DNA of 64,000 nt from an uncultured Verrucomicrobiae bacterium (GCA_963749035.1 CAVVKW010000001.1:142128-206127); one strand, 5' to 3'; positions 3,762 through 46,225 are shown, counted from the stretch's first letter. Notes: generated by a model from the letters alone, not told the origin. A program made the numbers and translations.

Positions 3762-3767
3762 GCCAAA

Positions 3768-3800
3768 ACGCTCACGCGAAGCCGCGACGTCGCGAAGAAC
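3768..3800. repeat. GC-rich REP-like intergenic repeat (CTCACGCGAAG-CGCGA-G-CGCGAAG), copy just downstream of metH
   Basis: cgctcacgcgaagccgcgacgtcgcgaaga matches the reverse complement of 30857-30890 at about 24/27 positions. Related inverted copies lie at 3941-3995. Confidence 0.6.
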
Positions 3801-4543: not shown

Positions 4544-4717
4544 GGAAATTTGTTTTGGGAACCCCGGAGAGGAGGTGACAAGAAAGCTACTGTTCAAAGG
4601 ACTGCGTTGTCAATCATCGCATTGCCATTTTCTCGTAGTTTTTCGAAATAAACCGGCTCAGCCTCCGAGGTCGCTCCCAATTTCCCCACCGCCTTTCACC
4701 TCTCCTTCAACCAGCCG

Positions 4718-11290: not shown

Positions 11291-11305
11291 CCCGCCACCC
11301 GCGGC

Positions 11306-29722: not shown

Positions 29723-29771
29723 GCCACCCGGACGAAACGCCCGACCAATCCCCCCACCTCGAACGACGCCC

Positions 29772-30626
29772 TTAATCGCGAAAAACGATCGCCCGCGCCC
29801 CGTGGACGAGCACCCGGTCTTCAACGTAGAAACGCACCCCTCGCGCCAACGCGAGCCGTTCGCAATCGCGGCCGATCCGCTTGAGATCACCGATCTCGTG
29901 AAAGTGCTCCACCCGCATCACTTCCTGTTCGACGATCGGACCCGCGTCCAGTTCCGCCGTCGCGTAGTGACACGTCGCGCCGATCAGCTTCACCCCCCGC
30001 TCGAAGGCCTGCCGATACGGATTCGCGCCCGCAAACGCCGGCAAAAACGAATGGTGAATGTTCAGCACCCGCCCCGCCCATTTTTCACAAAACCAGTCCG
30101 GTAAAATCTGCATAAACCGAGCCATCACGATCAACTCGGCCCCGAGCGCCACGCACCGCTCATCGATCCGTCGGAAGGCCGCGTCCCGCTCCGCCGCCGG
30201 AATCTCGATTCGCTCAAAGGCCAACCCCTCCGCCTCCACCAAACCCCGGCAATCCTCGTGGTTCGCGATCACCGCCGGGATCTCCACCCGCAGTTCCCCG
30301 CCCCGCTTCCGCCAAAGCAATTCCGCCACGCAATGCTCCTCCCGGCTCGCCAGCACCACCATCCGGAGTGCCTCACCCGCCCCCCGCAGCGACCATTTCG
30401 CCCTCAGCTCCTCCGCGATCGGCCCCAACCCCGACCGCAGTTTCTCCGCCCCGCCCGGCCCGGGCTCGATTTGCATCCGCGTGAAAAACCAGCCGCTCAG
30501 CGGATCCGTGTATTGATGCACCTCCGTCAGGTTCGCCCCGCACCCAGCGAGAAACCCCGTCAACCGCGCCACCAAGCCCACCGCATCCGGGCAATTCAGT
30601 TTCAAAATCTCCGTCCCACCGCTCAT
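29772..30626 (-). CDS. purU: Formyltetrahydrofolate deformylase
   Basis: ACT domain (ILKLNCPDAVGLVARLTGFLA) plus formyltransferase (NIHHSFLPAFAGANPY). Start at MSGGTEILKL (cat 30624-30626). Confidence 0.9.
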   Translation of the reverse strand: MSGGTEILKLNCPDAVGLVARLTGFLAGCGANLTEVHQYTDPLSGWFFTRMQIEPGPGGAEKLRSGLGPIAEELRAKWSLRGAGEALRMVVLASREEHCVAELLWRKRGGELRVEIPAVIANHEDCRGLVEAEGLAFERIEIPAAERDAAFRRIDERCVALGAELIVMARFMQILPDWFCEKWAGRVLNIHHSFLPAFAGANPYRQAFERGVKLIGATCHYATAELDAGPIVEQEVMRVEHFHEIGDLKRIGRDCERLALARGVRFYVEDRVLVHGARAIVFRD

Positions 30627-30638
30627 AATCGAAGCATC

Positions 30639-30854
30639 GTGAACCCTGAGGCCAAAATCCAAAACCCAAAAGCCACCGTCCTCCCCCTCCTCTGCTGCCC
30701 CCACACGCACCAGCCGCTCCGCCCCGCCACCCCCGCCGAACTTACCACCCTCGGCCTCACCGACGCCCTCGTCCGTAAAGACGGCCAGGCCGCCTACCCC
30801 GTCCGCGACGGCATCCCGATCCTCCTCCCCGAGGAATCGATCCCTCTGGGTTAA
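30639..30854 (+). CDS. Trm112/UPF0434-like small protein (start uncertain, GTG proposed)
   Basis: The C-terminal part of ORF 30258..30854 reads LLCCPHTHQPL....YPVRDGIPILLPEE, the Trm112 zinc-ribbon-like pattern. The upstream part of that ORF is antisense to purU. Confidence 0.5.
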   Translation: MNPEAKIQNPKATVLPLLCCPHTHQPLRPATPAELTTLGLTDALVRKDGQAAYPVRDGIPILLPEESIPLG

Positions 30855-30856
30855 AA

Positions 30857-30890
30857 AACCTTCGCGCCTTCGCGCCTTCGCGTGAGAACC
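30857..30890. repeat. GC-rich REP-like repeat (CCTTCGCG)x3-TGAGAACC upstream of thrS
   Basis: aaccttcgcgccttcgcgccttcgcgtgagaacc; same family as 3768-3800 (inverted) and 3941-3995. Confidence 0.6.
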
Positions 30891-30904
30891 TCCCGGCCCT
30901 TCTC

Positions 30905-32782
30905 ATGACTCCGCAAATGACCGAACTCGAGCGTCTCCGCCACTCCTGCGCCCACGTTCTCGCCACCGCCATTCTCAAAATCTGGCCCGACGCCCAGTTC
31001 GCCGCCGGCCCACCCGTCGACCAGGGCTTCTACTACGACGTCGACCTCGACCACCGCATCAGCCCCGAAGACTTCGAGAAAATCGAAGCCGCCATGAAGA
31101 CCGAGACCAAGGCCAACAACCCCTTCGAACGCGTCGAGATCTCTCGCGCCGAAGCCATCGCCCTCGCCGAAGCCGGCGAACTTGCCGCCCTCGGGCCCCG
31201 CTCCGCCCCGTCGAAGTTCAAACTCGATATCCTCACCCGCATCCCCGAAGGCGAGACCATCACCCTCTTCCGCAACGGCGAATTCACCGATCTCTGCGCC
31301 GGACCGCACGTTCCCCGCACCGGCAATCTCAAAGCCTTCAAGCTCACCCACGTCGCCAGCGCCTACTACCTCGGCGACGAAAACAACCCTCAACTCCAGC
31401 GCATCTACGGCACCGCCTTCAAGAACAAGACCGAGATGGCCGAGCACTTCGAGATGCTCGAAGAAGCCAAGCGCCGCGACCACCGCAAGATCGGCGCCGA
31501 GATGGGTCTCTTCGCCATGGACCCCGACTACGTCGGCCCCGGCCTCCCCTTGTGGCTACCAAAAGGCACCGTCCTCGTCGAAGAACTCGAAAAATTGGCG
31601 AAGGAAACCGAATTCGCCGCCGGCTACGACCGCGTCCGCACCCCGCACCTCGCCCGCGAGAAGATGTATCAGACCAGCGGCCACCTCCCCTACTACGAAG
31701 ACAGCATGTTCCCCCCGATGGAACTCAGCGAATCCTCCAACGGCGAAGCCGCTGACTCCTCCACTCAACCCTCAACACTCAACCCTCAACCCGCCGAAGG
31801 CGACTCCGACCGGTATTACTTGAAGGCGATGAACTGCCCGCACCACCACCGCATCTTCGCGGCGGAGCCCCGCAGTTACCGCGACCTTCCCCTCCGGTTC
31901 GCCGAATACGGCTGCTGCTACCGCTACGAGCAATCCGGCGAGCTCCTCGGCCTCATGCGCGTCCGCAGCATGCAGATGAACGACGCGCACATCTACTGCA
32001 CCGAAGAGCAGTTCGCCGACGAGTTCCGCGCCGTCAACGAGATGTATCTGAAGTATTTCAAGATCTTCGGCCTCGACCGCTACCAGATGCGGTTCAGCAC
32101 CCACGACCCCGCCAAGCTCGGCCAGAAGTTCGTCGACGACCCCGCCCTCTGGAAAAAAACCGAAGACATGGTCCGCCGCGTCCTCATCGACTCCGGCATT
32201 AACTACGTCGAAGTCCCCAACGAAGCCGCCTTCTACGGACCCAAGATCGACGTCCAGGTTTGGAGTGCCATCGGCCGCGAATTCACCATCGCCACCAACC
32301 AAGTCGACTTCGCCGTCCCGTCGAAATTCGGCCTCGTTTACAAGACCAGCGAGAATACCGAGGCCACCCCGCTCTGCATCCACCGCGCCCCGCTCGGCAC
32401 GCACGAGCGCTTCATCGGCTTCCTCATCGAGCACTACGCCGGCAATTTCCCCCTCTGGCTCGCCCCCGAGCAGGTCCGCATCATCACCATCGGCACCGAC
32501 GAACCGCTCGTCGACTACGCGCAAAAAATCCACGCCGAACTCCGCGCCCAGGGCGTCCGCGCCGAACTCGACGCCACCGCCGACAACATGAAAGGCAAGA
32601 TCCAGCACGCCGAGCAGCGCAAGGTCCACACCATGCTCGTCATCGGCATGCGCGACTTGGAAGCCGGCAACGTCAGCCTCCGCCTCCACGGCCAAGGCAA
32701 CAAAGGAGCCAAGCCCCGCAACGTCGCCATCGCCGATATCCTCACCCAAATCCGCGAACGCTCAGACTCATCCACAGAATAA
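30905..32782 (+). CDS. thrS: Threonine--tRNA ligase
   Basis: Editing-site motif HSCAHVLA, class II core (MNCPHHHRIF), anticodon-binding domain. Carries a heptamer-repeat-encoded insertion at 31764-31791. Confidence 0.96.
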   Translation: MTPQMTELERLRHSCAHVLATAILKIWPDAQFAAGPPVDQGFYYDVDLDHRISPEDFEKIEAAMKTETKANNPFERVEISRAEAIALAEAGELAALGPRSAPSKFKLDILTRIPEGETITLFRNGEFTDLCAGPHVPRTGNLKAFKLTHVASAYYLGDENNPQLQRIYGTAFKNKTEMAEHFEMLEEAKRRDHRKIGAEMGLFAMDPDYVGPGLPLWLPKGTVLVEELEKLAKETEFAAGYDRVRTPHLAREKMYQTSGHLPYYEDSMFPPMELSESSNGEAADSSTQPSTLNPQPAEGDSDRYYLKAMNCPHHHRIFAAEPRSYRDLPLRFAEYGCCYRYEQSGELLGLMRVRSMQMNDAHIYCTEEQFADEFRAVNEMYLKYFKIFGLDRYQMRFSTHDPAKLGQKFVDDPALWKKTEDMVRRVLIDSGINYVEVPNEAAFYGPKIDVQVWSAIGREFTIATNQVDFAVPSKFGLVYKTSENTEATPLCIHRAPLGTHERFIGFLIEHYAGNFPLWLAPEQVRIITIGTDEPLVDYAQKIHAELRAQGVRAELDATADNMKGKIQHAEQRKVHTMLVIGMRDLEAGNVSLRLHGQGNKGAKPRNVAIADILTQIRERSDSSTE

Positions 32783-32826
32783 ACGGACCGACCCAGGTCT
32801 GATTTCAGCATTCCGAATCGAATGCC

Positions 32827-32883
32827 AAAAATCTGCGTCCCTCGGCTTAATCTGCGGACAAAACTCAGGTAACGACATCGCCA
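32827..32883. repeat. Left 57-bp direct repeat bracketing the CRISPR-Cas locus
   Basis: aaaaatcTgcgtccctcggcttaatctgcggacaaaactcaggtaacgaCatcgcca; 55/57 identical to 46169-46225. Confidence 0.95.
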
Positions 32884-32907
32884 TAAAGTCCTTTGAACGG
32901 ACAACCC

Positions 32908-35262
32908 ATGCAGTTCTTCGCCCACACCGATCCGGACCACCCCGATCCCGGCGATGCCGCCCGGCATTGGGAGCCCCTCTTCACGCCGTTCGGCGAAGGC
33001 CCGGACGAATGCCGGCAAGACGCCTGCAAAAGGTGCGAGTCGCTTGACCGCTTCCACGGCCACCTCAACAAAGTCGCTTGGTGGACCGCCAAATTCGCCG
33101 CAGAAATGTTTCCCCCCGGCCCCGACCGGGAATCCGCCCACCAATGGGGCACCCTCACCGGCCTCTGGCACGACCTCGGGAAATTTGCACCTGAGTGGCA
33201 GGACTATCTCGAAGCTAAATCCGATCCTCACTCGACCGAGATCGCCGGAAAACTCGATCATTCGTCGGCCGGAGCCCGACACGCCGTCAGCCGAATTCCC
33301 CACGTCGGCACCTTCCTGGCCTACTTAATCGCCGGACATCACGCCGGTTTGGCCGACGGAATTTCCGACTCGAATACCAGTCTCGAAAACCGCCTTCGAC
33401 TGCGCCCCACGTCTCTCGACGGCCCACCCGAACTTCTCGCGTTCGCAAATACTCTCCCACCCATTCCCCTAGCATCCGACTCCGGCCCCAGCCACGCATT
33501 TTTCCTCCGCTTCCTCTTCTCCGCCCTCGCCGACGCCGACTTCCTCTCCACTGAGGCGTTCATGTCCGCCGATCGCGCCCGCTTCCGCCCCACCGCGCAG
33601 CCCTCCATCGCCGCTCTCGAATCCACCCTTACCACCCACCTTGAGAATCTCGCCAGCAAAGCCCGCCCGTCCCCCGTCAATCAATACCGCGCCAACATCC
33701 TTCGCGATTGCCGATCAGCGGCCAACGCCCCCCCCGGCCTCTTCTCCCTCACCGTCCCCACGGGCGGCGGGAAGACCCTCTCGTCCCTGGCTTTCGCCGT
33801 CAGTCATGCCCGCATTCACGACCTCCGACGGATCATCTACGTAATCCCCTACACCTCCATCATCGAGCAAAACGCCGCTGTCTTCCGGGAAGCCCTCTCC
33901 GCACTCGGCCCGGACGTCGTCCTTGAGCATCACTCGAGCTTCGACCCCGACAAGGAGACCACCACCTCCCGCCTCGCCACCGAGAACTGGGACGCCCGCC
34001 TCATCGTCACCACCAACGTCCAATTTTTCGATTCCCTCCACGCTCACAAAACCTCCCGCTGCCGAAAACTCCACCGCATCGCCCGTTCGGTCGTCATCCT
34101 CGACGAGGCCCAATCCCTTCCCACCAAGTTTTTAGCCCCCTGCCTTCGCACCCTCGAAGAACTCACAGCCCACTATCAGACCTCCGTCGTTCTCTGCACC
34201 GCGACCCAGCCCGCCATCATCCGAAACGATGAATTTAAAATCGGCCTCCAGCCGCCCCGTGAGATCATCCCCGATCCCGCCGACCTCTACCAGTCCCTCC
34301 GCCGCGTCACCACCACCCGCCTACCTGGAAAAACTCTCGACGAACCCCTCATCCACCACCTTCGCGATCACCCCCAGGCCCTCTGCATCGTCAATACCCG
34401 CCGCCACGCCCGTTGTCTCTTCGACCTGCTTCCGAACGATCCCGCTCGTTTCCACCTTTCCGCCCTCGTGTGTCCCGAGCACCGCACCGAAAAGCTCCGC
34501 ACTATCAAACACCGTCTCGACACCGACCTCTCCGTTCATCTCATCTCGACTCAACTCATCGAAGCTGGCGTCGACATTGACTTCCCCGTTGTCTTCCGAG
34601 CACTCGCCGGTCTCGACTCCATCGCCCAATCGGCAGGCCGCTGCGATCGCGAAGGCCGCCTCACCGCCGCAGCCGGCACTCCCGCCGGCCGCCTGTTCCT
34701 TTTCGAGCCACCAGCCGCTCCACCTCCCGGCTTTCTCGCCTCCACCGCCGCCTCCGCCGCCGAAGTCCTGTCCGCCGACCCGACTGATCCCCTCGATCTC
34801 TCCGTGATCGAATCCTATTTCCGGACCCATTACTGGAAACACGAGAACTCCACCGACGAAAAAAACATCCGCGACTGCTGGCCGCGCGAGCCGCTACGGC
34901 ATCCCCGCCAACTCCTCCAGTATAAGTTCAAGACCTGCGGCGAAACCTTCCGCCTGATCGATAACGACTACACGCAACCCGTCCTCATCCCCTACGGCGA
35001 CAAAGGCCGTCACCTCTGCGACCTGCTCCGCGAGACTTTCGACCCCTCCGAAATCCGCGACCTCGCCCGAAAGCTCCAGCGCTTCACCGTCAACATCCCC
35101 CCACACCAGCACGCCGCCCTACTTCGTGCCGGAATTCTCATCCCCCTCCACGACACGCGCTTTTTTCTTCTCAATTCCGCGCCACACTACGACGACGAAT
35201 GCGGCCTCCATCCCGAGCCCGACCTCACTCTCGACCCCTGCCATTTTCTTATCGCCGGATGA
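32908..35262 (+). CDS. cas3: Cas3 HD nuclease / SF2 helicase (type I-C)
   Basis: HD region (HLNKVAWW..LWHDLGKF..LDHSSAGARH); helicase motifs (TVPTGGGKT, VILDEAQ, LCTATQP); C-terminal domain. ATG 32908 preferred over TTG 32893. Confidence 0.95.
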   Translation: MQFFAHTDPDHPDPGDAARHWEPLFTPFGEGPDECRQDACKRCESLDRFHGHLNKVAWWTAKFAAEMFPPGPDRESAHQWGTLTGLWHDLGKFAPEWQDYLEAKSDPHSTEIAGKLDHSSAGARHAVSRIPHVGTFLAYLIAGHHAGLADGISDSNTSLENRLRLRPTSLDGPPELLAFANTLPPIPLASDSGPSHAFFLRFLFSALADADFLSTEAFMSADRARFRPTAQPSIAALESTLTTHLENLASKARPSPVNQYRANILRDCRSAANAPPGLFSLTVPTGGGKTLSSLAFAVSHARIHDLRRIIYVIPYTSIIEQNAAVFREALSALGPDVVLEHHSSFDPDKETTTSRLATENWDARLIVTTNVQFFDSLHAHKTSRCRKLHRIARSVVILDEAQSLPTKFLAPCLRTLEELTAHYQTSVVLCTATQPAIIRNDEFKIGLQPPREIIPDPADLYQSLRRVTTTRLPGKTLDEPLIHHLRDHPQALCIVNTRRHARCLFDLLPNDPARFHLSALVCPEHRTEKLRTIKHRLDTDLSVHLISTQLIEAGVDIDFPVVFRALAGLDSIAQSAGRCDREGRLTAAAGTPAGRLFLFEPPAAPPPGFLASTAASAAEVLSADPTDPLDLSVIESYFRTHYWKHENSTDEKNIRDCWPREPLRHPRQLLQYKFKTCGETFRLIDNDYTQPVLIPYGDKGRHLCDLLRETFDPSEIRDLARKLQRFTVNIPPHQHAALLRAGILIPLHDTRFFLLNSAPHYDDECGLHPEPDLTLDPCHFLIAG

Positions 35263-35352
35263 CCCTCTCCTTCTGCACGAACGCAAGGTTGAAATAAGCC
35301 CTATTCTCAATAGGCTTCTGCAAAAGGGAAATACCAAGACCGACCCGCGACC

Positions 35353-35586
35353 ATGCAAACCATCGACTGCGCCCACATCCCATTCCCCGCATCACTCCTT
35401 GAGTCGCTTAAACACGGCGAAACGATCGCCGTGCTCGACAAATCCCGCACGCTCGCCTTCATCGTTCCCGGGTCACCTTCCACTAAATCCCGCCCGTTTG
35501 GTTGCGCCAAGGGAGAATTCACGCTCGCCGACGACTTCAACGACCCGGACCCGGAAGTCGAAAGCCTGTTCTACGGAACAAACTGA
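35353..35586 (+). CDS. Phd/YefM-like type II antitoxin (PIN-associated)
   Basis: 77 aa. The C-terminal RPFGCAKGEFTLADDFNDPDPEVESLF is the typical tail of antitoxins paired with VapC-type PIN toxins. Same architecture as the antitoxin at 57333. Confidence 0.7.
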   Translation: MQTIDCAHIPFPASLLESLKHGETIAVLDKSRTLAFIVPGSPSTKSRPFGCAKGEFTLADDFNDPDPEVESLFYGTN

Positions 35587-35593
35587 ATCGCAA

Positions 35594-35691
35594 AATCGAA
35601 TCCCCGACCCGCAAAAACGAGCCGGGGAAATTCGATGGCAATGAGAGCCTTCGGATTAGAATTTCAATCCCCACCACGAAATCGTAGCGAC
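35594..35691 (-). ncRNA. Candidate degenerate mini-CRISPR RNA (psi-repeat, 34-nt psi-spacer, hairpin/terminator), creA/creR-like
   Basis: Minus strand 35691->35661 reads GTCGCTACGATTTCGTGGTGGGGATTGAAAT; the array repeat is GTCGCCCCCTCACACGGGGGCGCGGATTGAAAC. The first 5 nt are identical and 9 of the last 11 match. A replacement 6-bp stem (CGCUAC/GUGGUG) with a 6-nt loop keeps the geometry. A 34-nt spacer-like segment follows (35660->35627). Then comes a 10-bp hairpin CCCCGGCUCG-UUUUUG-CGGGUCGGGG (35627->35602) followed by AUUCGAUUUUG, starting where the next repeat would start. Confidence 0.6.
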
Positions 35692-35694
35692 CTC

Positions 35695-35726
35695 TTGACA
35701 ATAGCTGCCCAACCTCTATTGTTCAA
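35695..35726. promoter_or_regulatory. Palindromic pair of overlapping divergent sigma70-like promoters
   Basis: TTGACAATAG-n11-CTATTGTTCAA. Plus strand: TTGACA (35695-35700), 16 nt, TATTGT (35717-35722). Minus strand: TTGAAC (35726->35721), 17 nt, TATTGT (35703->35698). The predicted minus-strand TSS (about 35691) is the first nt of the psi-repeat. Confidence 0.5.
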
Positions 35727-35729
35727 GCC

Positions 35730-35766
35730 TTCTCTAAACAGAATGCTCTATGTCCACCGTTAGATA
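35730..35766 (+). promoter_or_regulatory. TTC-PAM-flanked partial protospacer matching the psi-spacer (candidate Cascade operator)
   Basis: TTC (35730-35732), then TCTAAACAGAATGCTCT, against psi-spacer TCTAATCCGAAGGCTCT. That is 14/17 identical, with mismatches at positions 6, 8 and 12. Identity is 4/17 over the remaining positions. The site lies between the predicted plus-strand TSS and the PIN ATG (35770). Confidence 0.55.
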
Positions 35767-35769
35767 GAT

Positions 35770-36153
35770 ATGAATTTTCTCTGCGATACTCATGCCTTTC
35801 TTTGGTTCGCCGGCGGGGATTCACGACTGCGTCAGGATCAGCGAGAAGCCCTCGAGGACACCGGAAACATCATTTTCCTAAGTTCGGTCTCATCCACTGA
35901 GATTGCCATCAAGCACAGCATCGGCAAACTCCCGTTGCCGGAATCCCCCGAGATCTACGTTCCACGGCTTCGCGAACGAGTTCAATTTTCGGAACTCCCG
36001 TTGGATGAACGAGCGTCCCTCCGCCTCGCGACCTTACCCCTCCTCCACCGCGATCCCTTTGATCGCCTCCTGATCTGCCAAGCTCTCACCCTCGAAATCA
36101 CAATCGTAACCTCCGACTCCCACGTCCGCCAATACGACGTCCCGACCCTCTAA
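35770..36153 (+). CDS. vapC: PIN-domain (VapC-like) toxin embedded between cas3 and cas5
   Basis: FLCDTHAFLWF...EIAIKHSIGKLPLP...HRDPFDRLLICQA...IVTSD. Same subfamily as the free-standing PIN at 57566. Confidence 0.85.
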   Translation: MNFLCDTHAFLWFAGGDSRLRQDQREALEDTGNIIFLSSVSSTEIAIKHSIGKLPLPESPEIYVPRLRERVQFSELPLDERASLRLATLPLLHRDPFDRLLICQALTLEITIVTSDSHVRQYDVPTL

Positions 36154-36162
36154 TCTCACCCC

Positions 36163-36849
36163 ATGTCCTACGGTATCAAAATCCACGTCTGGGGCGAATT
36201 CGCCTGTTTCACCCGCCCGGAAATGAAAGCCGAGCGCGTTACCTACGAAGTCATCACGCCCTCAGCCGCCCGCGGCATCCTCGAAGCCATTTACTGGAAG
36301 CCCCAAATCCGCTGGGTCATTGACAAACTTCACCTCCTCACCCCCGTCCGCTTCACCAGCATTCGCCGTAACGAAGTGGGCAAAAAAATGTTCTCGCCCT
36401 CTCAATCCGTCATGAGCAGCGCAGAGCCGGTCACCGTCGGACTTGCCGTCGAAGACGAGCGCCAGCAACGCGCCTCTCTCGTCCTCCGCGATGTCGCCTA
36501 CATCATCGAAGCCCATTTCGAACTCATCGACCGCACCGAACCCGAAGGCAAGCACCTCGACATGTTCAACCGCCGCGCCCGCCGCGGCCAATACTTTCAC
36601 CATCCCTATCTTGGTACCCGCGAATTCCCCGCCGACTTCGCCCTCATCGAATCCGATCACCCCGCTTCACAGCTCCCGCCCGCCAACCGCGACAGGGACT
36701 TCGGCTTCATGCTCCACGACATCGAATTCGATCAGGATCCCCGGACCAAAAAAGTCCGCAACACCACGCCCCGCTTTTATCCAGCCGTCATGAAGAATGG
36801 CGTCATCGACGTGCAGCAATGCCTTCGCAACTCCCCCCTCGGTCGATGA
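36163..36849 (+). CDS. cas5: Cas5c (Cas5d) crRNA endoribonuclease, type I-C
   Basis: MSYGIKIHVWGEFACFTRPEMKAERVTYEVITPSAARGILEAIYWKP is the canonical Cas5 I-C N-terminus. Confidence 0.93.
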   Translation: MSYGIKIHVWGEFACFTRPEMKAERVTYEVITPSAARGILEAIYWKPQIRWVIDKLHLLTPVRFTSIRRNEVGKKMFSPSQSVMSSAEPVTVGLAVEDERQQRASLVLRDVAYIIEAHFELIDRTEPEGKHLDMFNRRARRGQYFHHPYLGTREFPADFALIESDHPASQLPPANRDRDFGFMLHDIEFDQDPRTKKVRNTTPRFYPAVMKNGVIDVQQCLRNSPLGR

Positions 36850-38729
36850 TCCTCCAATCGCTCAACCAGCTTTACGGACGCCTCGCCGAAGACGACGACT
36901 ACCAACTCCCCCAGCCCGGCTACGCCACTCAGAACATCACCTTCCGCATCGTTCTTAATCCCGACGGCTCCCTTCAAAACATGGAAGACGCCCGCCAACC
37001 CATCACCGAGACACTCAGATCGGGAAAGACCAAAACCAGGCACGTCCCCCGGCAAATGCTCGTTCCCGATCTCGGCGGACGCACTTCCGGCATCAAACCC
37101 TACTTCCTCAGCGACAAACTCGCCTACCTCACCGGCTACGACAAGGACTCCGGCAAACGCGCCTTGGCGGAAAACCAGTTCGCCGCCTCCAAAGAGCTTC
37201 ACATCGCACTCGCCGCCCAGATCGAATCCGACGAATTCAAAGCCGTCTGTGCTCATTTCGAGCACTTCCACTGGGAGACCGCAACCGATCTGCTCGAAGA
37301 ATGCGCCCCATTCGCCTCCACCGGCTTCGGTGTTTTCCGCGTCCTGCCGGTCCGCGCCAACGTCCACGAACTCCAATCCATCCGCGACTACTGGGCCGCG
37401 AGAAAACCAGCCGCAACGGATGAACCCGAAACCGAAGGCCAATGCCTCGTCACCGGCGAAACCCTCCCGCTCGCCAGAATTCACGAGCCAAAATTTGGAG
37501 GCTTCGGAACCGACAAGCCCCTCCTAGTCTCCTTCAACGACCCAGCCTACCGCTCCTACGGCAAAGACCAATCCTACAACGCCCCCGTCTCCCGCCAAGC
37601 CACCTTCCAATACTGCAACGCCCTCAACGCACTCCTCTCCGGCCCTCGCTCCCACCGCCATCGCATTACGATCGGTGATGTCACCACCGTCTTTTGGACC
37701 GAACACGAAACCATCATCGAAGAGAAATTCGCCGCATTCTTCCGGGGCGAAATTGACACTCCTGAGAACCCGGCATCCCCGGCATCCGAAGACCGCAACG
37801 CCCACCAACGCCTCGACGCATTTCTTCGCCTCTTCCGCCGGGGCTCAGCCACCACTCTCGAAGACCTCGACGTCGATCCCGGCACAAAATTTTACATCCT
37901 CGGAGTCTCCAAGGTCACCAAAAGCCGCCTCGCCGTCCGTTACTGGCACGTCGGCACCATCCGCGAAATGATCGGCCGCCTCCGCGATCACTTCGACTGC
38001 CTCGCCATCCAACGCGCTTTCGACAACGAACCCGAATTCCCCTCCGCCAATCGCCTCCTCGATCAGACCGCCCCATTTCGAAACGGCAAATACGACCGCA
38101 AGACCATCTCCCCACTCCTCGGCGGCCAGCTTCTCCAGTCCATCCTTGGAGGCACACCCTATCCAATTGCCCTCGTCCAAGGCGTCCTTCACCGCCTCCG
38201 CGCCAACGACCCCATCAACTATCTCAAAGCTTCCATTCTCAAAGCCTTCCTAACCCGCAACCGCCAACAACCCATCCCCATGAGCCTTAATTTCGAAATC
38301 ACCGAACCCGCTTACCTAATGGGCCGCCTCTTCGCAGCCTTGGAAAAAACCCAGGAAGACGCCCTCGGCAAAGTCAACGCCGGACTCCGCGAGCGTTTCT
38401 ACGGCAGTGCATCCGCTTCGCCAGCGAGCGTCTTCCCCCGCATCCTTCGAACCTATCAGCATCACCTTGCCAGAATGACTAGCGGAGCTTTGGCCGATCA
38501 TGTCGGAGCGGAGAGGGCCGCGAAGGCAAAGGTCAGTCGCGAAAAATTAATCCGATCCATTCACGACTCAATCGATGCGAATATCGGCTATCCCGTTCAT
38601 TTCACATTGGAGGAACAGGGGCTGTTCGCCATCGGCTATTACCAACAGCGCCAGGCATTTTTTAAACCTTCTGGATCATCATCCGATCTCAACAACCAAG
38701 ACTCAACCACCACCCAAACCAACCCATGA
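36846..38729 (+). CDS. cas8c: Cas8c large subunit (Csd1), type I-C
   Basis: [17 protein letters not shown]... with an ATGA overlap onto cas5. Size and position are typical. Confidence 0.9.
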
Positions 38730-39583
38730 ACCGCACCGACTTCATCTACCTCTTCGATTGCACCGACGCCAACCCGAACGGCGACCCCGACGCCGGCAAC
38801 CTTCCCCGCCTCGATCCCGAGACCGGCCAGGGCCTCACCACCGACGTCATGCTCAAACGGAAAATCCGCAATTTCGTTCAACTCACCAAAGGCGACGACC
38901 CCGGCCACGACATCTACGTCAAAGAAAAAGCCGTCCTCAATAACCAGCACGCCCGGGCCTACCAGGCACTGGAGCTCGATCCGAAAAAGGCAAAACAGGA
39001 ACAGCGCGATCAGGCTAAGGCGTGGATGTGCCAGAATTTCTACGACATCCGCACCTTCGGAGCCGTCATGACGACAGACGTGAATTGCGGCCAGGTCCGC
39101 GGTCCCATCCAACTCTCCTTCGCTCGCTCCATCGACCGAATCGTCACCGCCGAGCACTCAATCACCCGCATGGCCGTCACGAAAATCGAAGACGCCGGAA
39201 AGCAGTCCGGAGACAACCGCACCATGGGCCGCAAATTCACCGTCCCCTACGGCCTCTACAAAGCCCAAGGCTTCATCAACCCCTTCCTTGCCAAACAAAC
39301 AGGCTTCGACGACGACGATCGTGAGCTTCTGTTTCACGCGCTCGAAAACGCCTTTCAGTTCGACCAATCCGCCGCCCGCCCCGCAGGCTCCATGGCACCC
39401 CGCGCCCTGATCATTTTCGAACACAACTCCGAACTCGGTAGCGCCCCCAGCAATAAGCTTTTCGAGAGCGTTACCATCACACGCAAACCCGGTGTCACTA
39501 CCCCCCGATCCTTCGCCGACTACGAAGTCACCATCGACGAATCCGCCATCCCCGACGGCATCACCCTCACCCGCCGAATCTGA
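38726..39583 (+). CDS. cas7: Cas7c backbone subunit (Csd2), type I-C
   Basis: [34 protein letters not shown].. is the Csd2 signature. ATGA overlap with cas8c. Confidence 0.93.
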
Positions 39584-39650
39584 AGCCGGCAGATCCGGGC
39601 CCTCCAGGCCCGAACTCCTCTCAACTCTCAACCATCAACTCTCACCCCCC

Positions 39651-40280
39651 CTGCCTGACTCCCTCCCCATCTCCGCGCTCCAACATTTGCTCTATTGCGA
39701 GCGGCAATGCGCGCTCATTCACATCGAGCGCCTCTGGACCGAGAACGTCTTCACCGCCGAAGGACGAGCCATGCACGAACGCGCGCACGACGGCCCCTCC
39801 GAATCACGCCCCGGCATTCGCACCGCCCGCGGGCTCAGCCTCATCTGTCAGCGGCTCGGTCTTCACGGCCAGGCTGACGTCGTCGAGTTCCATCGAGACG
39901 GCCCAGTCATCCCCGTCGAATACAAACGCGGTAAACCCAAGGCCCATCGCGCCGACGAAGTTCAACTCTGCGCCCAAGCCCTCTGCCTCGAGGAAATGCT
40001 CGGCCGCGAAGTCCCTTCCGGCAGCTTGTTCTACGGAAAAACCCACCGACGCCTCGACGTTGCTATCGATGCAGAGCTGCGCAAACTCACCGAGTCACTG
40101 ACAACCCGCCTCCACGCTATGGTTGCGGCCCGCGACACGCCACCACCGATTTTCGAATCCAAAAAATGCGGCGCGTGTTCCCTCATCGACGACTGCCTCC
40201 CTCGTCTGTCGAAACGGCCACGAGCTGGCGCCTGGTTCGAACGTCAGCTCCACACCGCCTTGACCCATGCAGACGAATAG
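39651..40280 (+). CDS. cas4: Cas4 RecB-like exonuclease (start codon unresolved)
   Basis: PISALQHLLYCERQCALIHIE..., and the C-terminal Cys cluster KKCGACSLIDDC. There is no ATG/GTG/TTG in frame between the cas7 stop and the conserved N-terminus. Options are CTG 39651, or ATG 39492 (92-nt overlap with cas7). Confidence 0.85.
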   Translation: MPDSLPISALQHLLYCERQCALIHIERLWTENVFTAEGRAMHERAHDGPSESRPGIRTARGLSLICQRLGLHGQADVVEFHRDGPVIPVEYKRGKPKAHRADEVQLCAQALCLEEMLGREVPSGSLFYGKTHRRLDVAIDAELRKLTESLTTRLHAMVAARDTPPPIFESKKCGACSLIDDCLPRLSKRPRAGAWFERQLHTALTHADE

Positions 40281-40295
40281 ACGATTTTAATCTGC

Positions 40296-40508
40296 ATGAG
40301 AACGACACTTAACCTCGATGACGACCTCATCGGTCAAGCCATGGAACTGACCGGAATCACGCAGAAAACCGAACTACTCCACCGCGGCCTACGCGAGCTC
40401 ATCGAACGCGAAGCCGCGCGACAACTCGCTGAGATGGGCGGCACCGCACCCGACTTCCAGCTCGCTTCCCGGCACCGCCGCCAAAAATGCCATGCCCGTC
40501 CTCGTTGA
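40296..40508 (+). CDS. vapB: VapB-type antitoxin (MRTTLNLDDDL family) between cas4 and cas1
   Basis: MRTTLNLDDDLIGQAMELTGITQKTELLHRGLRELIERE. Overlaps the downstream PIN gene by 17 nt. Confidence 0.85.
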   Translation: MRTTLNLDDDLIGQAMELTGITQKTELLHRGLRELIEREAARQLAEMGGTAPDFQLASRHRRQKCHARPR

Positions 40509-40875
40509 TACGTCCGTCTGGGTGGATCATTTGAATCGCGGTGAGCCCGCCCTCGCCCGCCTCCTTAGAGCGGGACGCGTCTGCACCCACGAGATCGTCC
40601 TCGGCGAGCTTCTCAGCGGCAACTTACCGGCTCGTTCACGAACGTCGGCAATCTTCCTCAACCTCCCCCGCCTGCAAACTGAGAAGTTTAAAGTAACACT
40701 CCGCTTCATCGAACATCACCGTCTCCACGGCCGAGGTTTGAATTGGAATGATCTCGGACTGCTCGCGTCCGTGGCAGTGGCCGACGCCTCCGAATTTTGG
40801 ACCCGAGACAAAACTCTTCGAACTTCCGCCGCCGAAATCGAAATCCCGCTCTTCGACGAAGGCATCAGCGACTGA
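40492..40875 (+). CDS. vapC: PIN-domain VapC toxin between cas4 and cas1
   Basis: MPVLVDTSVWVDHLNRGEP...THEIVLGELL...DLGLLASV. Confidence 0.85.
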   Translation: MPVLVDTSVWVDHLNRGEPALARLLRAGRVCTHEIVLGELLSGNLPARSRTSAIFLNLPRLQTEKFKVTLRFIEHHRLHGRGLNWNDLGLLASVAVADASEFWTRDKTLRTSAAEIEIPLFDEGISD

Positions 40876-40935
40876 CCTCTAGCCACACACCAGACACCAC
40901 TCAACTCTCAACTCTCAGCGACCGTCCCACCTCGC

Positions 40936-41955
40936 GTGAAGATCCACCTTAACACCCTCTTCGTCACCCGCGAAGACACCTATCTCGCCAAGGACGGAGC
41001 CGCCGTCGACGTCCGGAAAGACGGCAAATCCCTCCTCCGCGTTCCGCTACATAACCTCGATGGCATCGTCGCCCTCGGCTACGACATCGGAGCCAGCGCG
41101 CACCTCATGGCCGCCTGCGCCGAAGCCGGTGTCACGCTCTCCTTCTGCACACCCAACGGCCGCTTCCTCGCCGCCGTCCGCGGATTCACCCCCGGCAATG
41201 TTCTCCTCCGCCGCACGCAATACCGCATTTCCGACGACCTTAACGCCTCCCTCCACATCGCCCGCCCCATGATCGCCGCCAAGCTCGCGAACACGCGCAC
41301 CGTCCTCCAGCGAGCCACCCGCGACCACGGATCAACTCCCGAGATCGACGCCGCCGCCGCCTGGCTCGCTCGCAGCGCACAGAAAGCTCACCGCACCAAC
41401 GACCTCGACGCCCTTCGAGGAGTGGAAGGCGACGCCGCCGGGGCCTACTTCGAAGTCTTCGCAAAATTGATCAAGGCCGACGGATTTGCCTTCCCCGGCC
41501 GCATCCGCCGCCCACCCACCGATCCCGTCAACGCGCTCTTATCCTTTCTCTACAGTCTGCTCGCGCACGATTGCCGCTCCGCGCTCGAATCCGTCGGCCT
41601 CGACGCCGCCGTCGGCTTCCTGCACCGCGACCGCCCCGGTCGCCCCTCGCTGGCACTCGACCTAATGGAGGAATTTCGACCCGTCCTCGCCGACCGCGCT
41701 GTCCTGACCTTGCTCAACCGACGGCAATTGAACGGAAAAGATTTCCGCACCGGAGAACTGGGCGCAGTCGAACTCACCGACGACGCCCGCAAGTCCGTCC
41801 TTACGACCTGGCAGGAGCGAAAGCGCGACGAAATCACCCATCCATTTCTGGACGAAAAGACGACCATCGGACTCCTACCATTTCTACAGGCCCGCCTCTT
41901 GGCGCGGCACCTCCGCGGTGACCTCGACGCCTATCCCGCCTTTCTTTGGAAATAG
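40936..41955 (+). CDS. cas1: Cas1 integrase, type I-C (GTG start)
   Basis: [24 protein letters not shown]... [12 protein letters not shown]... typical Cas1. Confidence 0.94.
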
Positions 41956-41959
41956 CGCC

Positions 41960-42250
41960 ATGCAACTCCTCATTACCTACGACGTCGCCACCAGCACCGA
42001 AGGAGGAGCCCGCCGCCTGCGCCGCGTCGCCAAAGTCTGTCTCGACTACGGCCAACGCGTCCAAAACTCCGTCTTCGAATGCGCCGTCGATCCCGCCCAA
42101 CTCGTCGAAATGAAAACCCGCTTGCTGGACATCGCCGACCTCGATCACGATTCTCTCCGGTTCTACAACCTCGGAGCCGAGTGGGACCGCCGAGTCGAAC
42201 ACTTCGGCACAAAGCCCTCGATCAATCCCCGGGGACCACTCATCATCTGA
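41960..42250 (+). CDS. cas2: Cas2
   Basis: [41 protein letters not shown]. Start at the internal ATG 41960 of ORF 41918..42250. Confidence 0.93.
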
Positions 42251-42428
42251 ACCGCGAACCCAAAGCAGTCAGAAGTCACTTAAGGAGTTCGCGGGCAGCA
42301 GAAGCGACTGACTGCTAACGCTCTTTGAAAATGTGACCCCGAATCAGCTTTCTGAGGGAAGCATCATCGCGAGAGTTCGCGCAAAATCTTTCTCGGGCAA
42401 TTGATGCTGAACGCTTTAGTATCCAAGG
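42251..42428 (+). promoter_or_regulatory. CRISPR leader
   Basis: 178-bp AT-richer non-coding stretch between cas2 and the first repeat. The degenerate terminal repeat is at the distal end, so the array reads on the plus strand. Confidence 0.7.
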
Positions 42429-45400
42429 GTCGCCCCCTCACACGGGGGCGCGGATTGAAACATTTCTCGAAAAACCTCCGAATCCACGGCCAGACCGTCG
42501 CCCCCTCACACGGGGGCGCGGATTGAAACAAATAGCTGAATCTCCAAGGGGCGGCTCAAGAGGTCGCCCCCTCACACGGGGGCGCGGATTGAAACTGAGC
42601 TATATCCGTCTTGAGGTGATACTGCGTCTGTCGCCCCCTCACACGGGGGCGCGGATTGAAACAGCAGCCCAGCGAGTTCTGTTTGCAGAGCTAGGATGTC
42701 GCCCCCTCACACGGGGGCGCGGATTGAAACGCTCAGCGACGTCCGCAGTTCCACGCTCGCCACGGTCGCCCCCTCACACGGGGGCGCGGATTGAAACGAC
42801 TTCTTCGCGAGCTGTTCAGCGTTCCGATTCTGGTCACCCCCTCACACGGGGGCGCGGATTGAAACGTGGGGCTGGAGCGGCTGGCGCTGGACAAGCGGAG
42901 GTCGCCCCCTCACACGGGGGCGCGGATTGAAACTGATCGGTTGTTTTCATGATTTCGTTTCAGTTGGCGTCGCCCCCTCACACGGGGGCGCGGATTGAAA
43001 CACCACTGGCGGCTTCTCGCAGTGCCTGGGGATCAGTCGCCCCCTCACACGGGGGCGCGGATTGAAACCCGCTGTGATGTCCCGCAAAACCGGCTCCGAT
43101 CGGTCGCCCCCTCACACGGGGGCGCGGATTGAAACACTTATTGCTATCCGGAAACGACATATTGATTGTGTCGCCCCCTCACACGGGGGCGCGGATTGAA
43201 ACAGCGGCATCTCCGCCGCCAGCTGCACCGAGCCTTGTCGCCCCCTCACACGGGGGCGCGGATTGAAACACCGCCGCCACCCCCGGCGTCAGATTCGGCC
43301 CCTGTCGCCCCCTCACACGGGGGCGCGGATTGAAACAGCGTCTGATCGACCGGGCGACCGTTCGCGCCCTCGTCGCCCCCTCACACGGGGGCGCGGATTG
43401 AAACGTGCGGACCGTGCGGTTCCTCCCAAGGCAGGGGCGGTCGCCCCCTCACACGGGGGCGCGGATTGAAACTTGAGCTACGAGCTGATCGACTCGTGCA
43501 AATACGTCGCCCCCTCACACGGGGGCGCGGATTGAAACGATCCGGATCCCGGACCGGCAGGAGATCGCGGCGGGTCGCCCCCTCACACGGGGGCGCGGAT
43601 TGAAACCAAGCGCGATCGCGGTTCCCTCGACGTCGCCTAGTCGCCCCCTCACACGGGGGCGCGGATTGAAACCGCCCCCGCCGACCTCGGCGACACCGCC
43701 GGGTCAGTCGCCCCCTCACACGGGGGCGCGGATTGAAACAGGCGAAGATCGGCAAAGCGGCGACCGCTGAAGAGTCGCCCCCTCACACGGGGGCGCGGAT
43801 TGAAACGCCCGCCTCCGGGAAGAAAACTCCGGCTCAGAATGTCGCCCCCTCACACGGGGGCGCGGATTGAAACAGCTCCGCCAGAGACTGCGCCCGCTCC
43901 GCTTGGGCGTCGCCCCCTCACACGGGGGCGCGGATTGAAACATCCTGGTAAGACCAATATCCCGCCGCCCGTGGATGTCGCCCCCTCACACGGGGGCGCG
44001 GATTGAAACTGGCTGCTGGGTGACGACGCGTTGACGCGGCGACGGTCGCCCCCTCACACGGGGGCGCGGATTGAAACTTCGTCCTCATCCATATCGATGA
44101 TTATCCACCAGCTGTCGCCCCCTCACACGGGGGCGCGGATTGAAACACCTCCAGCCGCACCGAGTTCGCAGCCTTCACCGGTCGCCCCCTCACACGGGGG
44201 CGCGGATTGAAACGGGTCGCGACCACGGTAGGACAGACGGCGTCGCTGTCGCCCCCTCACACGGGGGCGCGGATTGAAACAGTGACTCAATGGCGGGCGT
44301 CAACTATCTGCTCAAGTCGCCCCCTCACACGGGGGCGCGGATTGAAACATGTTGCCCTGCTGGACGGGGGGCGGCATCGTTCAGGTCGCCCCCTCACACG
44401 GGGGCGCGGATTGAAACGACAGGCGCGTGCCGGAAGGATTCTGGGCGTGGGGGTCGCCCCCTCACACGGGGGCGCGGATTGAAACACTGGTGACAATGCC
44501 GATAAGGATGAGGCGCTCGGTCGCCCCCTCACACGGGGGCGCGGATTGAAACCATTATCGAAGAGCCCTCTGGTTATCGACCGAGCGTCGCCCCCTCACA
44601 CGGGGGCGCGGATTGAAACGGATTTTTCGCTGGGGGATGGCGAGGCGGTTCGCCGTCGCCCCCTCACACGGGGGCGCGGATTGAAACTTCGCCGCCACCT
44701 TCCGATCACCCGTCCCCAGAGGTCGCCCCCTCACACGGGGGCGCGGATTGAAACCGGGCCTGACCGGCGCGATCACGACAACTCGCCGGTCGCCCCCTCA
44801 CACGGGGGCGCGGATTGAAACCCCCTCCGGCGACTGCGTCACCATCAGCCCCGGATGTCGCCCCCTCACACGGGGGCGCGGATTGAAACACCGCCTTGTT
44901 CGGCGAGCGCGCATCTTATGTGGTCGCCCCCTCACACGGGGGCGCGGATTGAAACCGTTTTGGAGAGTCAGTCGCACTTCCTTGAGCGTCGTCGCCCCCT
45001 CACACGGGGGCGCGGATTGAAACAAAGTCGTCCCCGCAGCATTTTCGCAGCTATCCGGTCGCCCCCTCACACGGGGGCGCGGATTGAAACTTCGCACTCT
45101 TAGCATCCCAAATGTTATTTAATTTGCCCCCTCACACGGGGGCGCGGATTGAAACCTCGCCGGCTGGGTGATCGCGGCCGTCCCGCTGCTGTCGCCCCCT
45201 CACACGGGGGCGCGGATTGAAACGCCGTCTTCACGCTCAAGATGCTCTGCCGCCATGTCGCCCCCTCACACGGGGGCGCGGATTGAAACATACATCGCAC
45301 CATTCTTCCGGATCTTCGTCCCGTCGCCCCCTCACACGGGGGCGCGGATTGAAACAGGTAATCGACTTCCTAAGATTCGTCGGGAGGAGGTCGCCCCCTC

Positions 45401-46090
45401 ACACGGGGGCGCGGATTGAAACCATGGAATCAACTTGGCAACATCATCCTCCGTAATGTCGCCCCCTCACACGGGGGCGCGGATTGAAACAGGTTCCCCC
45501 ATTTGTTTCAGTAAAAGATTCCGGTCGCCCCCTCACACGGGGGCGCGGATTGAAACCTCGTCGGTCATGGTCGGCGGGAATACAGCGAGGGTCGCCCCCT
45601 CACACGGGGGCGCGGATTGAAACAAACCTCAGTTCGCTCCGCTCGTGGAATCAGGTGTCGCCCCCTCACACGGGGGCGCGGATTGAAACCCCTTTGGTTT
45701 CGGTGCCGGTTTCGGAGTGGTCTGTCGCCCCCTCACACGGGGGCGCGGATTGAAACGTCGCGAGGATCTGATTCCCGATTTGATCCAGCGTCGCCCCCTC
45801 ACACGGGGGCGCGGATTGAAACAACTGAATCGACGTGATCTGGGCTCCGGACCACGGTCGCCCCCTCACACGGGGGCGCGGATTGAAACGCATTTTATGC
45901 GATTTATTTTCGGGCGTCGAAACGGTCGCCCCCTCACACGGGGGCGCGGATTGAAACTCACGCCCGCGCATCGCCCACGTGAACGCGTTAAGTCGCCCCC
46001 TCACACGGGGGCGCGGATTGAAACCATTGCTCGACGCATTCCCGATCGACTGCCCATGTCGCCCCCTCACACGGGGGCGCGGATTAAGAT
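42429..46090 (+). CRISPR. CRISPR array, 55 repeats / 54 spacers, type I-C repeat
   Basis: The 33-nt repeat GTCGCCCCCTCACACGGGGGCGCGGATTGAAAC was counted by hand at every unit. Spacers are 32-36 nt. Variant repeats: 42833 (G4A), 45123 (5-prime GTC->TTT), and terminal 46058 (..GGATTAAGAT). Confidence 0.99.
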
Positions 46091-46168: not shown

Positions 46169-46225
46169 AAAAATCCGCGTCCCTCGGCTTAATCTGCGGA
46201 CAAAACTCAGGTAACGAAATCGCCA
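46169..46225. repeat. Right 57-bp direct repeat bracketing the CRISPR-Cas locus
   Basis: aaaaatcCgcgtccctcggcttaatctgcggacaaaactcaggtaacgaAatcgcca; 55/57 identical to 32827-32883. Confidence 0.95.

Follow-up and report, generated by a model that had tools for sequence, protein, structure and literature searches.

A 64,000-nt stretch of DNA from an uncultured Verrucomicrobiae bacterium (GCA_963749035.1, CAVVKW010000001.1:142128-206127; hereafter the window) carries a complete type I-C CRISPR-cas locus in which two putative toxin-antitoxin (TA) pairs lie among the cas genes. In the reading we prefer, to which we assign a probability of about 0.65, the pair between cas3 and cas5c (AT1 and PIN1; pair 1) forms, with a solitary CRISPR repeat located between its two genes, a CRISPR-supervised toxin cassette, and the pair between cas4 and cas1 (vapB2 and vapC2; pair 2) is an ordinary type II VapBC pair. 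An earlier note on this sequence had treated the two pairs as equivalent; we found instead that pair 2 shows no cas-specific association and is missing from L071, the closest related I-C locus (Cas1 81% identical). Positions given here are those of the window, cas genes were identified from a listing of open reading frames (ORFs) and from domain scans with Pfam and NCBIfam, and L-numbers are labels of related or surveyed loci.

The earlier note had described AT1 and PIN1 as a pair of adjacent genes. Both genes are real, but 183 nt lie between them. This stretch includes a hairpin, a repeat unit in antisense orientation and a distinct promoter-like site, and pair 1 therefore lacks the bicistronic adjacency of type II VapBC modules. 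The repeat unit, the most telling feature of the locus and one which the earlier note missed, is a solitary CRISPR repeat-like element on the minus strand (psiR, GTCGCTACGATTTCGTGGTGGGGATTGAAAT) that consists, like the repeat unit of the array (GTCGCCCCCTCACACGGGGGCGCGGATTGAAAC), of a hairpin and a handle of 10-11 nt; the psiR handle is the 11-nt sequence GGGAUUGAAAU. Outside the array, psiR is the sole instance of the motif GATTGAAA[CT] in the 64-kb window. When the spacers of related loci are aligned, a conserved block, GTTTCAATCC, is followed by a stem-loop and then by GCGAC, an arrangement which is the reverse complement of an I-C CRISPR repeat. As in the array repeat, the hairpin into which most copies of psiR fold stops 10-11 nt short of the 3' end, the distance in the window being 10 nt; the copies of L071 and L079 are the exceptions and show no clean folding. 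The stem sequences differ completely between loci and the handle block is kept. A solitary unit of handle and hairpin is thus present outside the array, and it is conserved in nine related loci.

The psiR handle is followed by a putative guide of about 24 nt (the psi-spacer) and then by a 3' hairpin, which is the best terminator-like hit of the cas region in our scan and is found in the same position in all related loci. The corresponding 112-nt minus-strand RNA folds with z = -4.46 relative to shuffled sequences. This hairpin probably also insulates AT1 from transcription of PIN1. On the plus strand, the promoter-like site which precedes PIN1 and the downstream cas genes (10/12) is the best hit within 32600-42500, where promoter calls are consensus matches only, and a homologous site is found in L071 (TTGACA-16-TATCAT, 11/12). 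A candidate minus-strand promoter overlaps this site; a transcript made from it would begin with the first base of the repeat unit. An Rfam scan of 35250-36200 at a permissive threshold found no CRISPR-DR family; matches to mir-2568 and NsiR1 on the 3' hairpin were rejected as chance hits. GC content falls to 0.52 at 35500-36000, which covers the AT1-PIN1 spacer and PIN1.

The guide matches a site at the PIN1 promoter. The target in the window, TTC followed by TCTAAACAGAATGCTCTA, is matched by the guide TCTAATCCGAAGGCTCTC at 14 of 18 positions next to the protospacer-adjacent motif (PAM) TTC; it begins 8 nt past the -10 hexamer of the PIN1 promoter-like site and 37 nt before the PIN1 ATG. The mismatches are at positions 6, 8, 12 and 18, and only 9 of 20000 shuffles gave a match as good. 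The shuffle test was run for five loci, and in two of the other four, L075 (mismatches 12 and 18) and L006 (mismatches 6 and 12), both with 16/18 matches and PAM TTC, no shuffle among 20000 did as well. For L081 (14/18, PAM TTT, mismatches 6, 12, 17 and 18) and L089 (14/18, PAM TTC, mismatches 4, 12, 17 and 18) the count was 6 of 20000 in each case. A further two loci, L161 (mismatches 12, 17 and 18) and L164 (mismatches 6, 12 and 17), have 15/18 matches, again with PAM TTC. The guides belong to several unrelated sequence families, each of which matches the target of its own locus, so that guide and target co-vary. Every locus has a mismatch at position 12, and four of eight have one at position 6, both being positions which do not pair in type I effector complexes. 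No phage mimic combining the handle with the guide seed was found in the viral contigs searched.

Table 1. Features of the type I-C locus and of the AT1-PIN1 cassette, in window coordinates.
Feature	Position	Strand	Description
Direct repeat, left copy	32835-32875		41 nt; between thrS stop and cas3 start; exact-repeat search and alignment
cas3	32893-35262	+	HD nuclease and helicase; Pfam DEAD, Cas3-like_C_2, Cas3_HD; NCBIfam cas3_core, cas3_HD
AT1 promoter, candidate	35289-35316	+	TTGAAA, 16 nt, TAGGCT; weak, below scan threshold in the window
AT1	35353-35586	+	77-aa Phd/YefM-like antitoxin
3' hairpin/terminator of putative CRISPR RNA (crRNA)-like RNA	35595-35636	-	12-bp stem, then T-rich tail
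psi-spacer (putative guide)	35637-35660	-	about 24 nt, follows the handle; TCTAATCCGAAGGCTCTC
psiR	35691-35661	-	solitary CRISPR repeat-like unit; hairpin and 10-11-nt handle
PIN1/downstream-cas promoter-like site	35695-35722	+	TTGACA, 16 nt, TATTGT; 10/12
crRNA-like RNA promoter, candidate	35726-35721 and 35703-35698	-	TTGAAC, 17 nt, TATTGT; overlaps PIN1 promoter-like site
Predicted Cascade binding site	35730-35750	+	PAM TTC (35730-35732) and 18-nt partial protospacer (35733-35750)
PIN1	35770-36153	+	VapC-family PIN protein, 127 aa; Pfam PIN 5.9e-11
cas5c	36163-36849	+	full-length Pfam and NCBIfam I-C model matches
cas8c	36819-38729	+	full-length Pfam and NCBIfam I-C model matches
cas7	38726-39583	+	full-length Pfam and NCBIfam I-C model matches
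cas4	39492-40280	+	Pfam Cas_Cas4, NCBIfam cas4; longest ORF, true start probably internal
vapB2	40296-40508	+	Pfam VapB_antitoxin 1.4e-16
vapC2	40492-40875	+	Pfam PIN 1.3e-9; NCBIfam VapC
cas1	40936-41955	+	Pfam Cas1
cas2	ends 42250	+	NCBIfam cas2
CRISPR array	~42429-46090	+	~55 repeats of 32-33 nt, spacers ~35 nt; terminal repeat degenerate
Direct repeat, right copy	46177-46217		41 nt; exact-repeat search and alignment

The cassette is not a peculiarity of this strain, and this speaks in favour of the earlier note's interpretation. The same order of AT1, antisense repeat and PIN is seen again in nine or ten diverged I-C loci, and pair 1 is conserved inside the I-C loci of at least nine other diverged genomes; the hosts are Chthoniobacterales and Akkermansiaceae metagenome-assembled genomes (MAGs), together with unassigned metagenome contigs. 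Among PIN1 homologues of more than about 55% identity on contigs long enough to show their neighbours, all lie directly 5' of cas5 or cas3. The order in L071 and L075 is cas3, AT1, PIN, cas5, and that in L006, L078-80, L072-74, L081-83, L089, L161/162 and L164 is AT1, PIN, cas3, cas5. All cas-linked copies have an AT1 homologue (46-69% identity) and a gap of 160-230 nt between AT1 and PIN. In about 65 more-distant metagenome homologues, the antitoxin gene abuts or overlaps the PIN gene (gap 0-50 nt, mostly below 40) and there is no adjacent cas operon. The cas-linked PIN copies form one group in a neighbour-joining tree, and those which bear the repeat cluster together.

Several of the related loci have features of their own. 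In L161 (8951-9515, minus strand) and L162 (4005-4722, minus strand), where the cassette is already present upstream of cas3, a further small pair lies in opposite orientation between cas3 and cas5; it consists of a 135-aa ORF and a FitA-like ribbon-helix-helix antitoxin. The end of a cas3 (L089 2-526, 55% identical to the Cas3 of the window) lies upstream of the cassette in L089 and a second, much more divergent cas3 (1910-4129, 31%) lies downstream of it, which may represent two tandem type I systems or a duplicated cas3. In I-C loci of Caenarcaniphilales and Melainabacteria, an antisense solitary repeat (L043 8420 and L053 3274, both on the minus strand) is followed by a gene for an NYN (PIN-like) nuclease located between cas3 and cas5 (8712-9182 and 3373-3867, respectively). 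The guide-target matches there are 16/18 in L043 and 13/18 in L053, with PAM TTC, and these NYN loci suggest that the antisense-repeat design arose more than once. Solitary repeats are also found on the plus strand just upstream of cas5 in L024 (2873), L040 (9263) and L066 (9255); their guides match minus-strand sites in the cas3-cas5 gap (13-15/18, PAM TTC, mismatches 6 and 12), and from sequence they look like regulators of the CreR type or of the type found in CRISPR-supervised immune systems (CRISIS).

The proteins of pair 1 have the features expected of a VapBC-type module. In PIN1 the acidic residues D6, E44, D98 and D116 are intact and are invariant across 30 homologues, and sequence search places the protein in the very large VapC family. 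As PDB sequence searches with PIN1 and with a PIN1 profile gave no matches, we compared folds: the AlphaFold model (predicted local distance difference test score 96.7) is closest to the VapC toxins of Shigella and Rickettsia and to FitB of Neisseria gonorrhoeae, with template modelling (TM) scores of about 0.7. The model also resembles PcrIIC1, a Cas9-associated pro-CRISPR protein (PDB 8wmm_G, TM 0.58). The C-terminus of AT1 carries RPFGxAKGEFxxxDDFNDP, the toxin-binding motif of VapC partners, and NCBIfam TA_VapB matches there at 5e-5. AT1 aligns with the antitoxins that abut non-cas homologues of PIN1, and its profile matches M. tuberculosis VapB46 (6jqy) at 5.6e-5. AT1 itself has no Pfam match; Pfam PhdYeFM is matched by five of 15 AT1 homologues. 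On these profile and homologue matches, and on the PIN1 residues and VapC-like fold, the description of pair 1 as a Phd-like antitoxin plus PIN toxin is sound. The earlier note had stated that loss of the acidic residues would refute its interpretation; both pairs belong to VapBC-type TA families with intact PIN active sites.

AT1 appears to have a weak promoter of its own. The candidate hexamers are aligned upstream of AT1 in L071 (TTGAAA...TAG(A/G)CT) and, more loosely, in L075 (TTGAAA...TAACCT), and in L071 the scan reports both the AT1-upstream site and a terminator after AT1. Gene callers place long ORFs in other frames across AT1 (a 319-aa 'Bro-N' at L072 7007-7966 and a 160-aa ORF at L075 156-638), and a 172-aa low-complexity ORF overlaps AT1 at 35126-35644 of the window. 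A 77-aa antitoxin is easily mis-annotated in high-GC sequences such as these, and the gene callers missed the repeat unit as well.

We propose the following mechanism. A short minus-strand RNA would be made, comprising the repeat-like hairpin and handle, the guide of about 24 nt and the 3' hairpin; by analogy with other I-C crRNA-like RNAs, Cas5c would cut it after the repeat hairpin and the RNA would be loaded into Cascade. The guide pairs over about 17 nt with the TTC-flanked site at the PIN1 promoter. Such a match is probably too short for cleavage by Cas3 and long enough to block transcription, so that Cascade would repress PIN1 and, because pairing stops after about 17 nt, would sit on the promoter without triggering Cas3. 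Through co-transcription, repression would extend to cas5-cas8c-cas7 and probably through cas2, as our scan predicts no plus-strand terminator or promoter between PIN1 and cas2. The Cascade genes (cas5c, cas8c and cas7) are tightly packed directly behind PIN1, and since there seems to be no room for another promoter there, Cascade would feed back on its own operon. AT1 would lie outside the repressed unit, with its own weak promoter and the hairpin after it; it would buffer basal PIN1 and would not rise on release of the PIN1 promoter. If Cascade were lost or blocked by an anti-CRISPR, PIN1 would outrun AT1 and growth would stop, with the outcome that loss of Cascade is penalised and infections by anti-CRISPR-carrying elements are aborted.

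The earlier note had suggested that both pairs act as addiction modules or as abortive-infection back-ups coupled to cas transcription. For pair 1 this suggestion gains direct support from the sequence, in that a crRNA-like guide between antitoxin and toxin matches the toxin promoter region beside a TTC PAM; the coupling to cas is not one of simple co-transcription. We consider the chances even that pair 1 is a three-part hybrid, namely a VapBC-type pair split by a crRNA-like RNA gene, with the PIN toxin held by both the antitoxin and Cascade and with CreR-like feedback on cas expression. With the toxin gene at the head of the Cascade (or cas3-Cascade) operon, this feedback would come from the same guide. 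In such a hybrid, a shortfall of Cascade would produce a burst of toxin unmatched by the separately transcribed antitoxin, and the cassette would be an inherited, mobile accessory of I-C loci.

A number of observations weigh against a CRISPR-supervised toxin cassette. The psiR of the window has a degenerate stem with several G-U pairs and is only about 60% identical to the array repeat; the minus-strand promoter falls below the scan threshold, and it, the RNA ends and the processing are all predictions. Not all related loci conform: only an 11-nt seed matches the target in L071, the target of L079 is weak and not significant alone, L163 has the repeat and a best target of only 11/18, which is no clear target, and L072 has no recognisable repeat. 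Indeed, no repeat unit was found in the AT1-PIN spacer of L072-L074, in which AT1 and PIN lie beside cas3; it is either lost there or too diverged. The related loci share ancestry and are thus not independent observations. Bootstrap values for the cas-linked group are moderate, 37% in the strict set and 62% with the repeat-bearing L163, whose contig is too short to show cas genes. PIN1 is a putative toxin whose toxicity is read from its sequence. Finally, if PIN1 and Cascade are co-transcribed at steady state, AT1 alone might suffice to hold the toxin and the guide might regulate only the cas genes.

This last possibility leads to an alternative in which the solitary repeat is mainly a CreR-type autoregulator of cas, and PIN1 and its antitoxin are a passenger TA pair which does not guard CRISPR. 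PIN1 heads the Cascade or cas3-Cascade operon in all copies, so any repression of PIN1 necessarily regulates cas genes, and solitary repeats aimed at cas promoters are common. However, the repeat always lies between AT1 and PIN1, whichever of its two positions relative to cas3 the cassette occupies, which indicates that AT1, repeat and PIN1 move as one unit, and both AT1 and the active-site residues of PIN1 are conserved over deep divergence. We regard this alternative as rather unlikely; it overlaps with a CRISPR-supervised toxin cassette and does not exclude it. Less probable again is that both pairs are selfish type II TA modules which settled in permissive junctions and only stabilise the neighbouring DNA. 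Pair 2 fits this description fully, and I-C junctions often carry insertions, which are of many kinds (Fic/DOC, Bro-N, NYN, RES-Xre, reverse transcriptase, helicases). For pair 1, however, four features are left unexplained: the antisense repeat is conserved, guide and target co-vary and have a TTC PAM, positions 6 and 12 are mismatched, and the clade is linked to cas exclusively.

The conserved position beside the effector genes and the weak fold resemblance to PcrIIC1 (8wmm_G, TM 0.58) would also suit an accessory nuclease which is regulated by AT1 and aids CRISPR, either in RNA processing or by partnering the effector in a pro-CRISPR role. The nearest folds and sequence families of PIN1 are VapC toxins (TM ~0.7), however, the cognate antitoxin family is retained, and repression by the effector suits a harmful product better than a helper, which makes such a role highly improbable. 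We give scarcely any credence to the view that guide and target are an inverted repeat whose two arms act as an operator for a protein or pair as an RNA stem, and that the repeat-like block is the remnant of a decayed array. On one strand the two do constitute an inverted repeat that surrounds the promoter, and operators of TA modules are often palindromic, but the conserved 10-11-nt handle with its hairpin of variable sequence stands beside one arm only and the TTC PAM beside the other only, the mismatches cluster at positions 6 and 12, and the same design is found in unrelated I-C loci with other cargo.

Pair 2 presents a different picture. The antitoxin gene lies directly upstream of the toxin gene in one operon with an overlap of 17 nt, and homologues are paired likewise. 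The residues D6, E39, D87 and D106 of VapC2 are intact, in columns that are invariant in 20 homologues. A PDB sequence search with VapC2 gave no matches. There are no close relatives: the closest homologues are only 46-51% identical, and the two we inspected are ordinary VapB-VapC pairs without cas genes nearby. We therefore rejected pair 2 as a cas-associated module, its best homologues being in non-cas contexts. No repeat handle was found near pair 2 in the motif search of the 64-kb window, nor any promoter-like site in front of it in the promoter scan of the cas region. In L071 pair 2 is absent and the cas4-cas1 gap is 7 nt. From its sequence, pair 2 looks like a canonical type II VapBC inserted between cas4 and cas1 in the lineage of the window; judged by the measure of uniqueness to one strain which the earlier note had set, it looks unique to that lineage. 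At most it would be a generic stabiliser of the island bracketed by the 41-nt direct repeat.

Genes at the module junctions of I-C operons are not surprising in themselves. We scanned one genome per species with Cas8c, which yielded 65 I-C loci (25-48% Cas8c identity), and located the cas genes in each with tblastn. Of these loci, 11 have an insertion of at least 280 nt at cas3-cas5, 14 at cas7-cas4 and seven at cas4-cas1. Pfam identified Fic/DOC, Bro-N, Phd, PIN, NYN, a RES-Xre pair, reverse transcriptase, Schlafen-like helicases and others among 20 inserted ORFs. Interrupted I-C operons are thus common, and their cargo is often toxin-, TA- or defence-like. The statement of the earlier note that the canonical I-C operon has no genes where the two pairs lie is, given the insertions at cas3-cas5 and cas4-cas1, too strong. 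The PIN genes of L022 and L062 were considered as members of the cas-linked clade and rejected; they fall outside it and so look like separate insertions. In L053, a RES-domain toxin and an Xre/MbcA/ParS-type antitoxin (10329-11428) lie between cas1 and cas2, a junction which is rarely interrupted. L029, from a Methylumidiphilus MAG, has a Phd/YefM antitoxin gene at cas3-cas5 (4535-4819) and a PIN gene at cas8-cas7 (7926-8324), so that toxin and antitoxin occupy separate junctions, and there are several more gaps in the same operon.

The overall architecture of the locus agrees with that given in the earlier note: the gene order is borne out by the ORF listing and the domain scans, all genes are on the plus strand, and the gaps of 9 nt from the PIN1 stop to the cas5 start and of 15 nt from the cas4 stop to the vapB2 start are as reported there. 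The junctions cas3-AT1 and vapC2-cas1 measure 90 and 60 nt, respectively. The division of the locus by the TA pairs into three functional modules, which that note had emphasised, is descriptive only. An identical arrangement is present in an independent MAG (GCA_049793755.1) and in Logan assemblies, and it is therefore not an assembly artefact. In one source the organism is labelled a Chthoniobacterales bacterium. The flanking direct repeats which had been noted are indeed there, as perfect 41-nt copies; the repeat extends to about 56 nt with two mismatches and brackets a 13.3-kb CRISPR-cas island between thrS and a major facilitator superfamily sugar-transporter gene. No integrase was seen inside the island. 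In the closely related L071 the locus has other upstream neighbours than in the window, and for this reason the island appears to be mobile. The 41-nt repeats could allow deletion of the whole island; both TA pairs would make such a loss costly, provided that the toxins persist longer than the antitoxins. GC skew is -0.14 to -0.47 (C over G, plus strand) over 28000-42500, a region which contains thrS and all cas genes, and it vanishes within the CRISPR array.

Links between TA modules and CRISPR have so far mostly been explained as chance clustering or through special RNA toxins. Pair 1, a TA of the classical protein type, which is the commonest kind, appears to have had its toxin promoter put under the control of the effector, with the antitoxin kept. 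If this is true, conversion of ordinary VapBC modules into guards that protect CRISPR-Cas from loss and from anti-CRISPRs is possible, and pair 1 would be a natural example of dual (protein and RNA-guided) control of a toxin coupled to cas autoregulation. The compact cassette of about 800 bp would then also lend itself to kill-switch designs or anti-CRISPR screening in I-C systems.

The closest precedent is the preprint on CRISIS (bioRxiv 10.1101/2024.12.27.630466), which describes I-C operons with an interruption between cas3 and cas5c; the crRNA-like RNAs described there have one repeat and a 3' hairpin, the PAMs are TTC or TTA, and positions 6 and 12 are mismatched. Pair 1 shares with these systems the I-C type, the non-cas genes between cas3 and cas5c, the solitary repeat with an 11-nt handle, the 3' hairpin and, at the promoter of the cargo, a site with a TTC PAM which the guide matches in part, positions 6 and 12 being mismatched. 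It differs in its cargo, as the systems which the preprint names (Nezha, Gabija, sole-Sir2, Wukong, Erlang, Tianpeng, Shaseng, Longwang, Guanyin and Tudigong) include no VapBC-type TA, and in its layout. The CRISIS unit follows the cargo and precedes cas5c, whereas in pair 1 the unit is found between antitoxin and toxin, upstream of PIN1 and on the opposite strand; its own target is about 40 nt away, and PIN1 and cas5 have nothing between them. The CRISIS target is 37-46 bp upstream of the transcription start, whereas that of pair 1 is at the predicted start, and unlike CRISIS the pair 1 cassette is also found upstream of cas3.

CrePA, from Acinetobacter I-F systems (bioRxiv 10.1101/2024.01.05.574328), combines a KilA-N protein toxin with a CreA RNA. 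Like pair 1, it has a protein toxin, and the effector with a crRNA-like RNA is predicted to repress the promoter of that toxin, a response to anti-CRISPRs being expected; its toxin, however, is a KilA-N cell-division inhibitor, whereas pair 1, in a I-C system, has a PIN/VapC RNase-like protein and has kept a protein antitoxin. The CreTA modules (Li et al. 2021, Science; Cheng et al. 2021, 2022, NAR) pair RNA toxins with CreA guides, and for H. hispanica the second repeat is reported to be replaced by a terminator. Pair 1 resembles them in its position among Cascade genes, its crRNA-like RNA with a degenerate repeat, the terminator in place of a second repeat and the partial pairing with the toxin promoter. 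CreT is a small RNA that sequesters rare tRNAs, whereas the toxin gene of pair 1 encodes a 127-aa PIN protein with a protein antitoxin; pair 1 is thus not a CreTA in the strict sense, which requires a small-RNA toxin. In a survey, Shmakov et al. 2023 (PMC10120712) reported repeat-like elements in cas loci which are predicted to target the promoters of embedded TA modules, and an enrichment of TA nearby; their cases are mainly I-D, with two-repeat mini-arrays upstream of cas10d, and no I-C PIN/VapBC case is described.

PIN/VapBC cargo is not mentioned in the CreTA, CrePA, Shmakov et al. or CRISIS texts, and our literature search, the coverage of which was incomplete so that an earlier description elsewhere is possible, found no crRNA-like RNA together with VapC or VapBC. 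With the canonical VapBC modules (Shigella MvpAT, Rickettsia VapBC2, M. tuberculosis VapBC46), pair 1 shares the PIN fold, the four acidic residues and the small upstream antitoxin. Pair 2 has their classic overlapping operon, whereas the genes of pair 1 are uncoupled by a predicted opposing transcription unit and a separate promoter-like site. The general principle of CRISPR-supervised cargo is therefore already known; what appears to be new is the PIN/VapBC cargo, the place of the toxin at the head of the effector operon and the antisense repeat placed between antitoxin and toxin, beside its own target.

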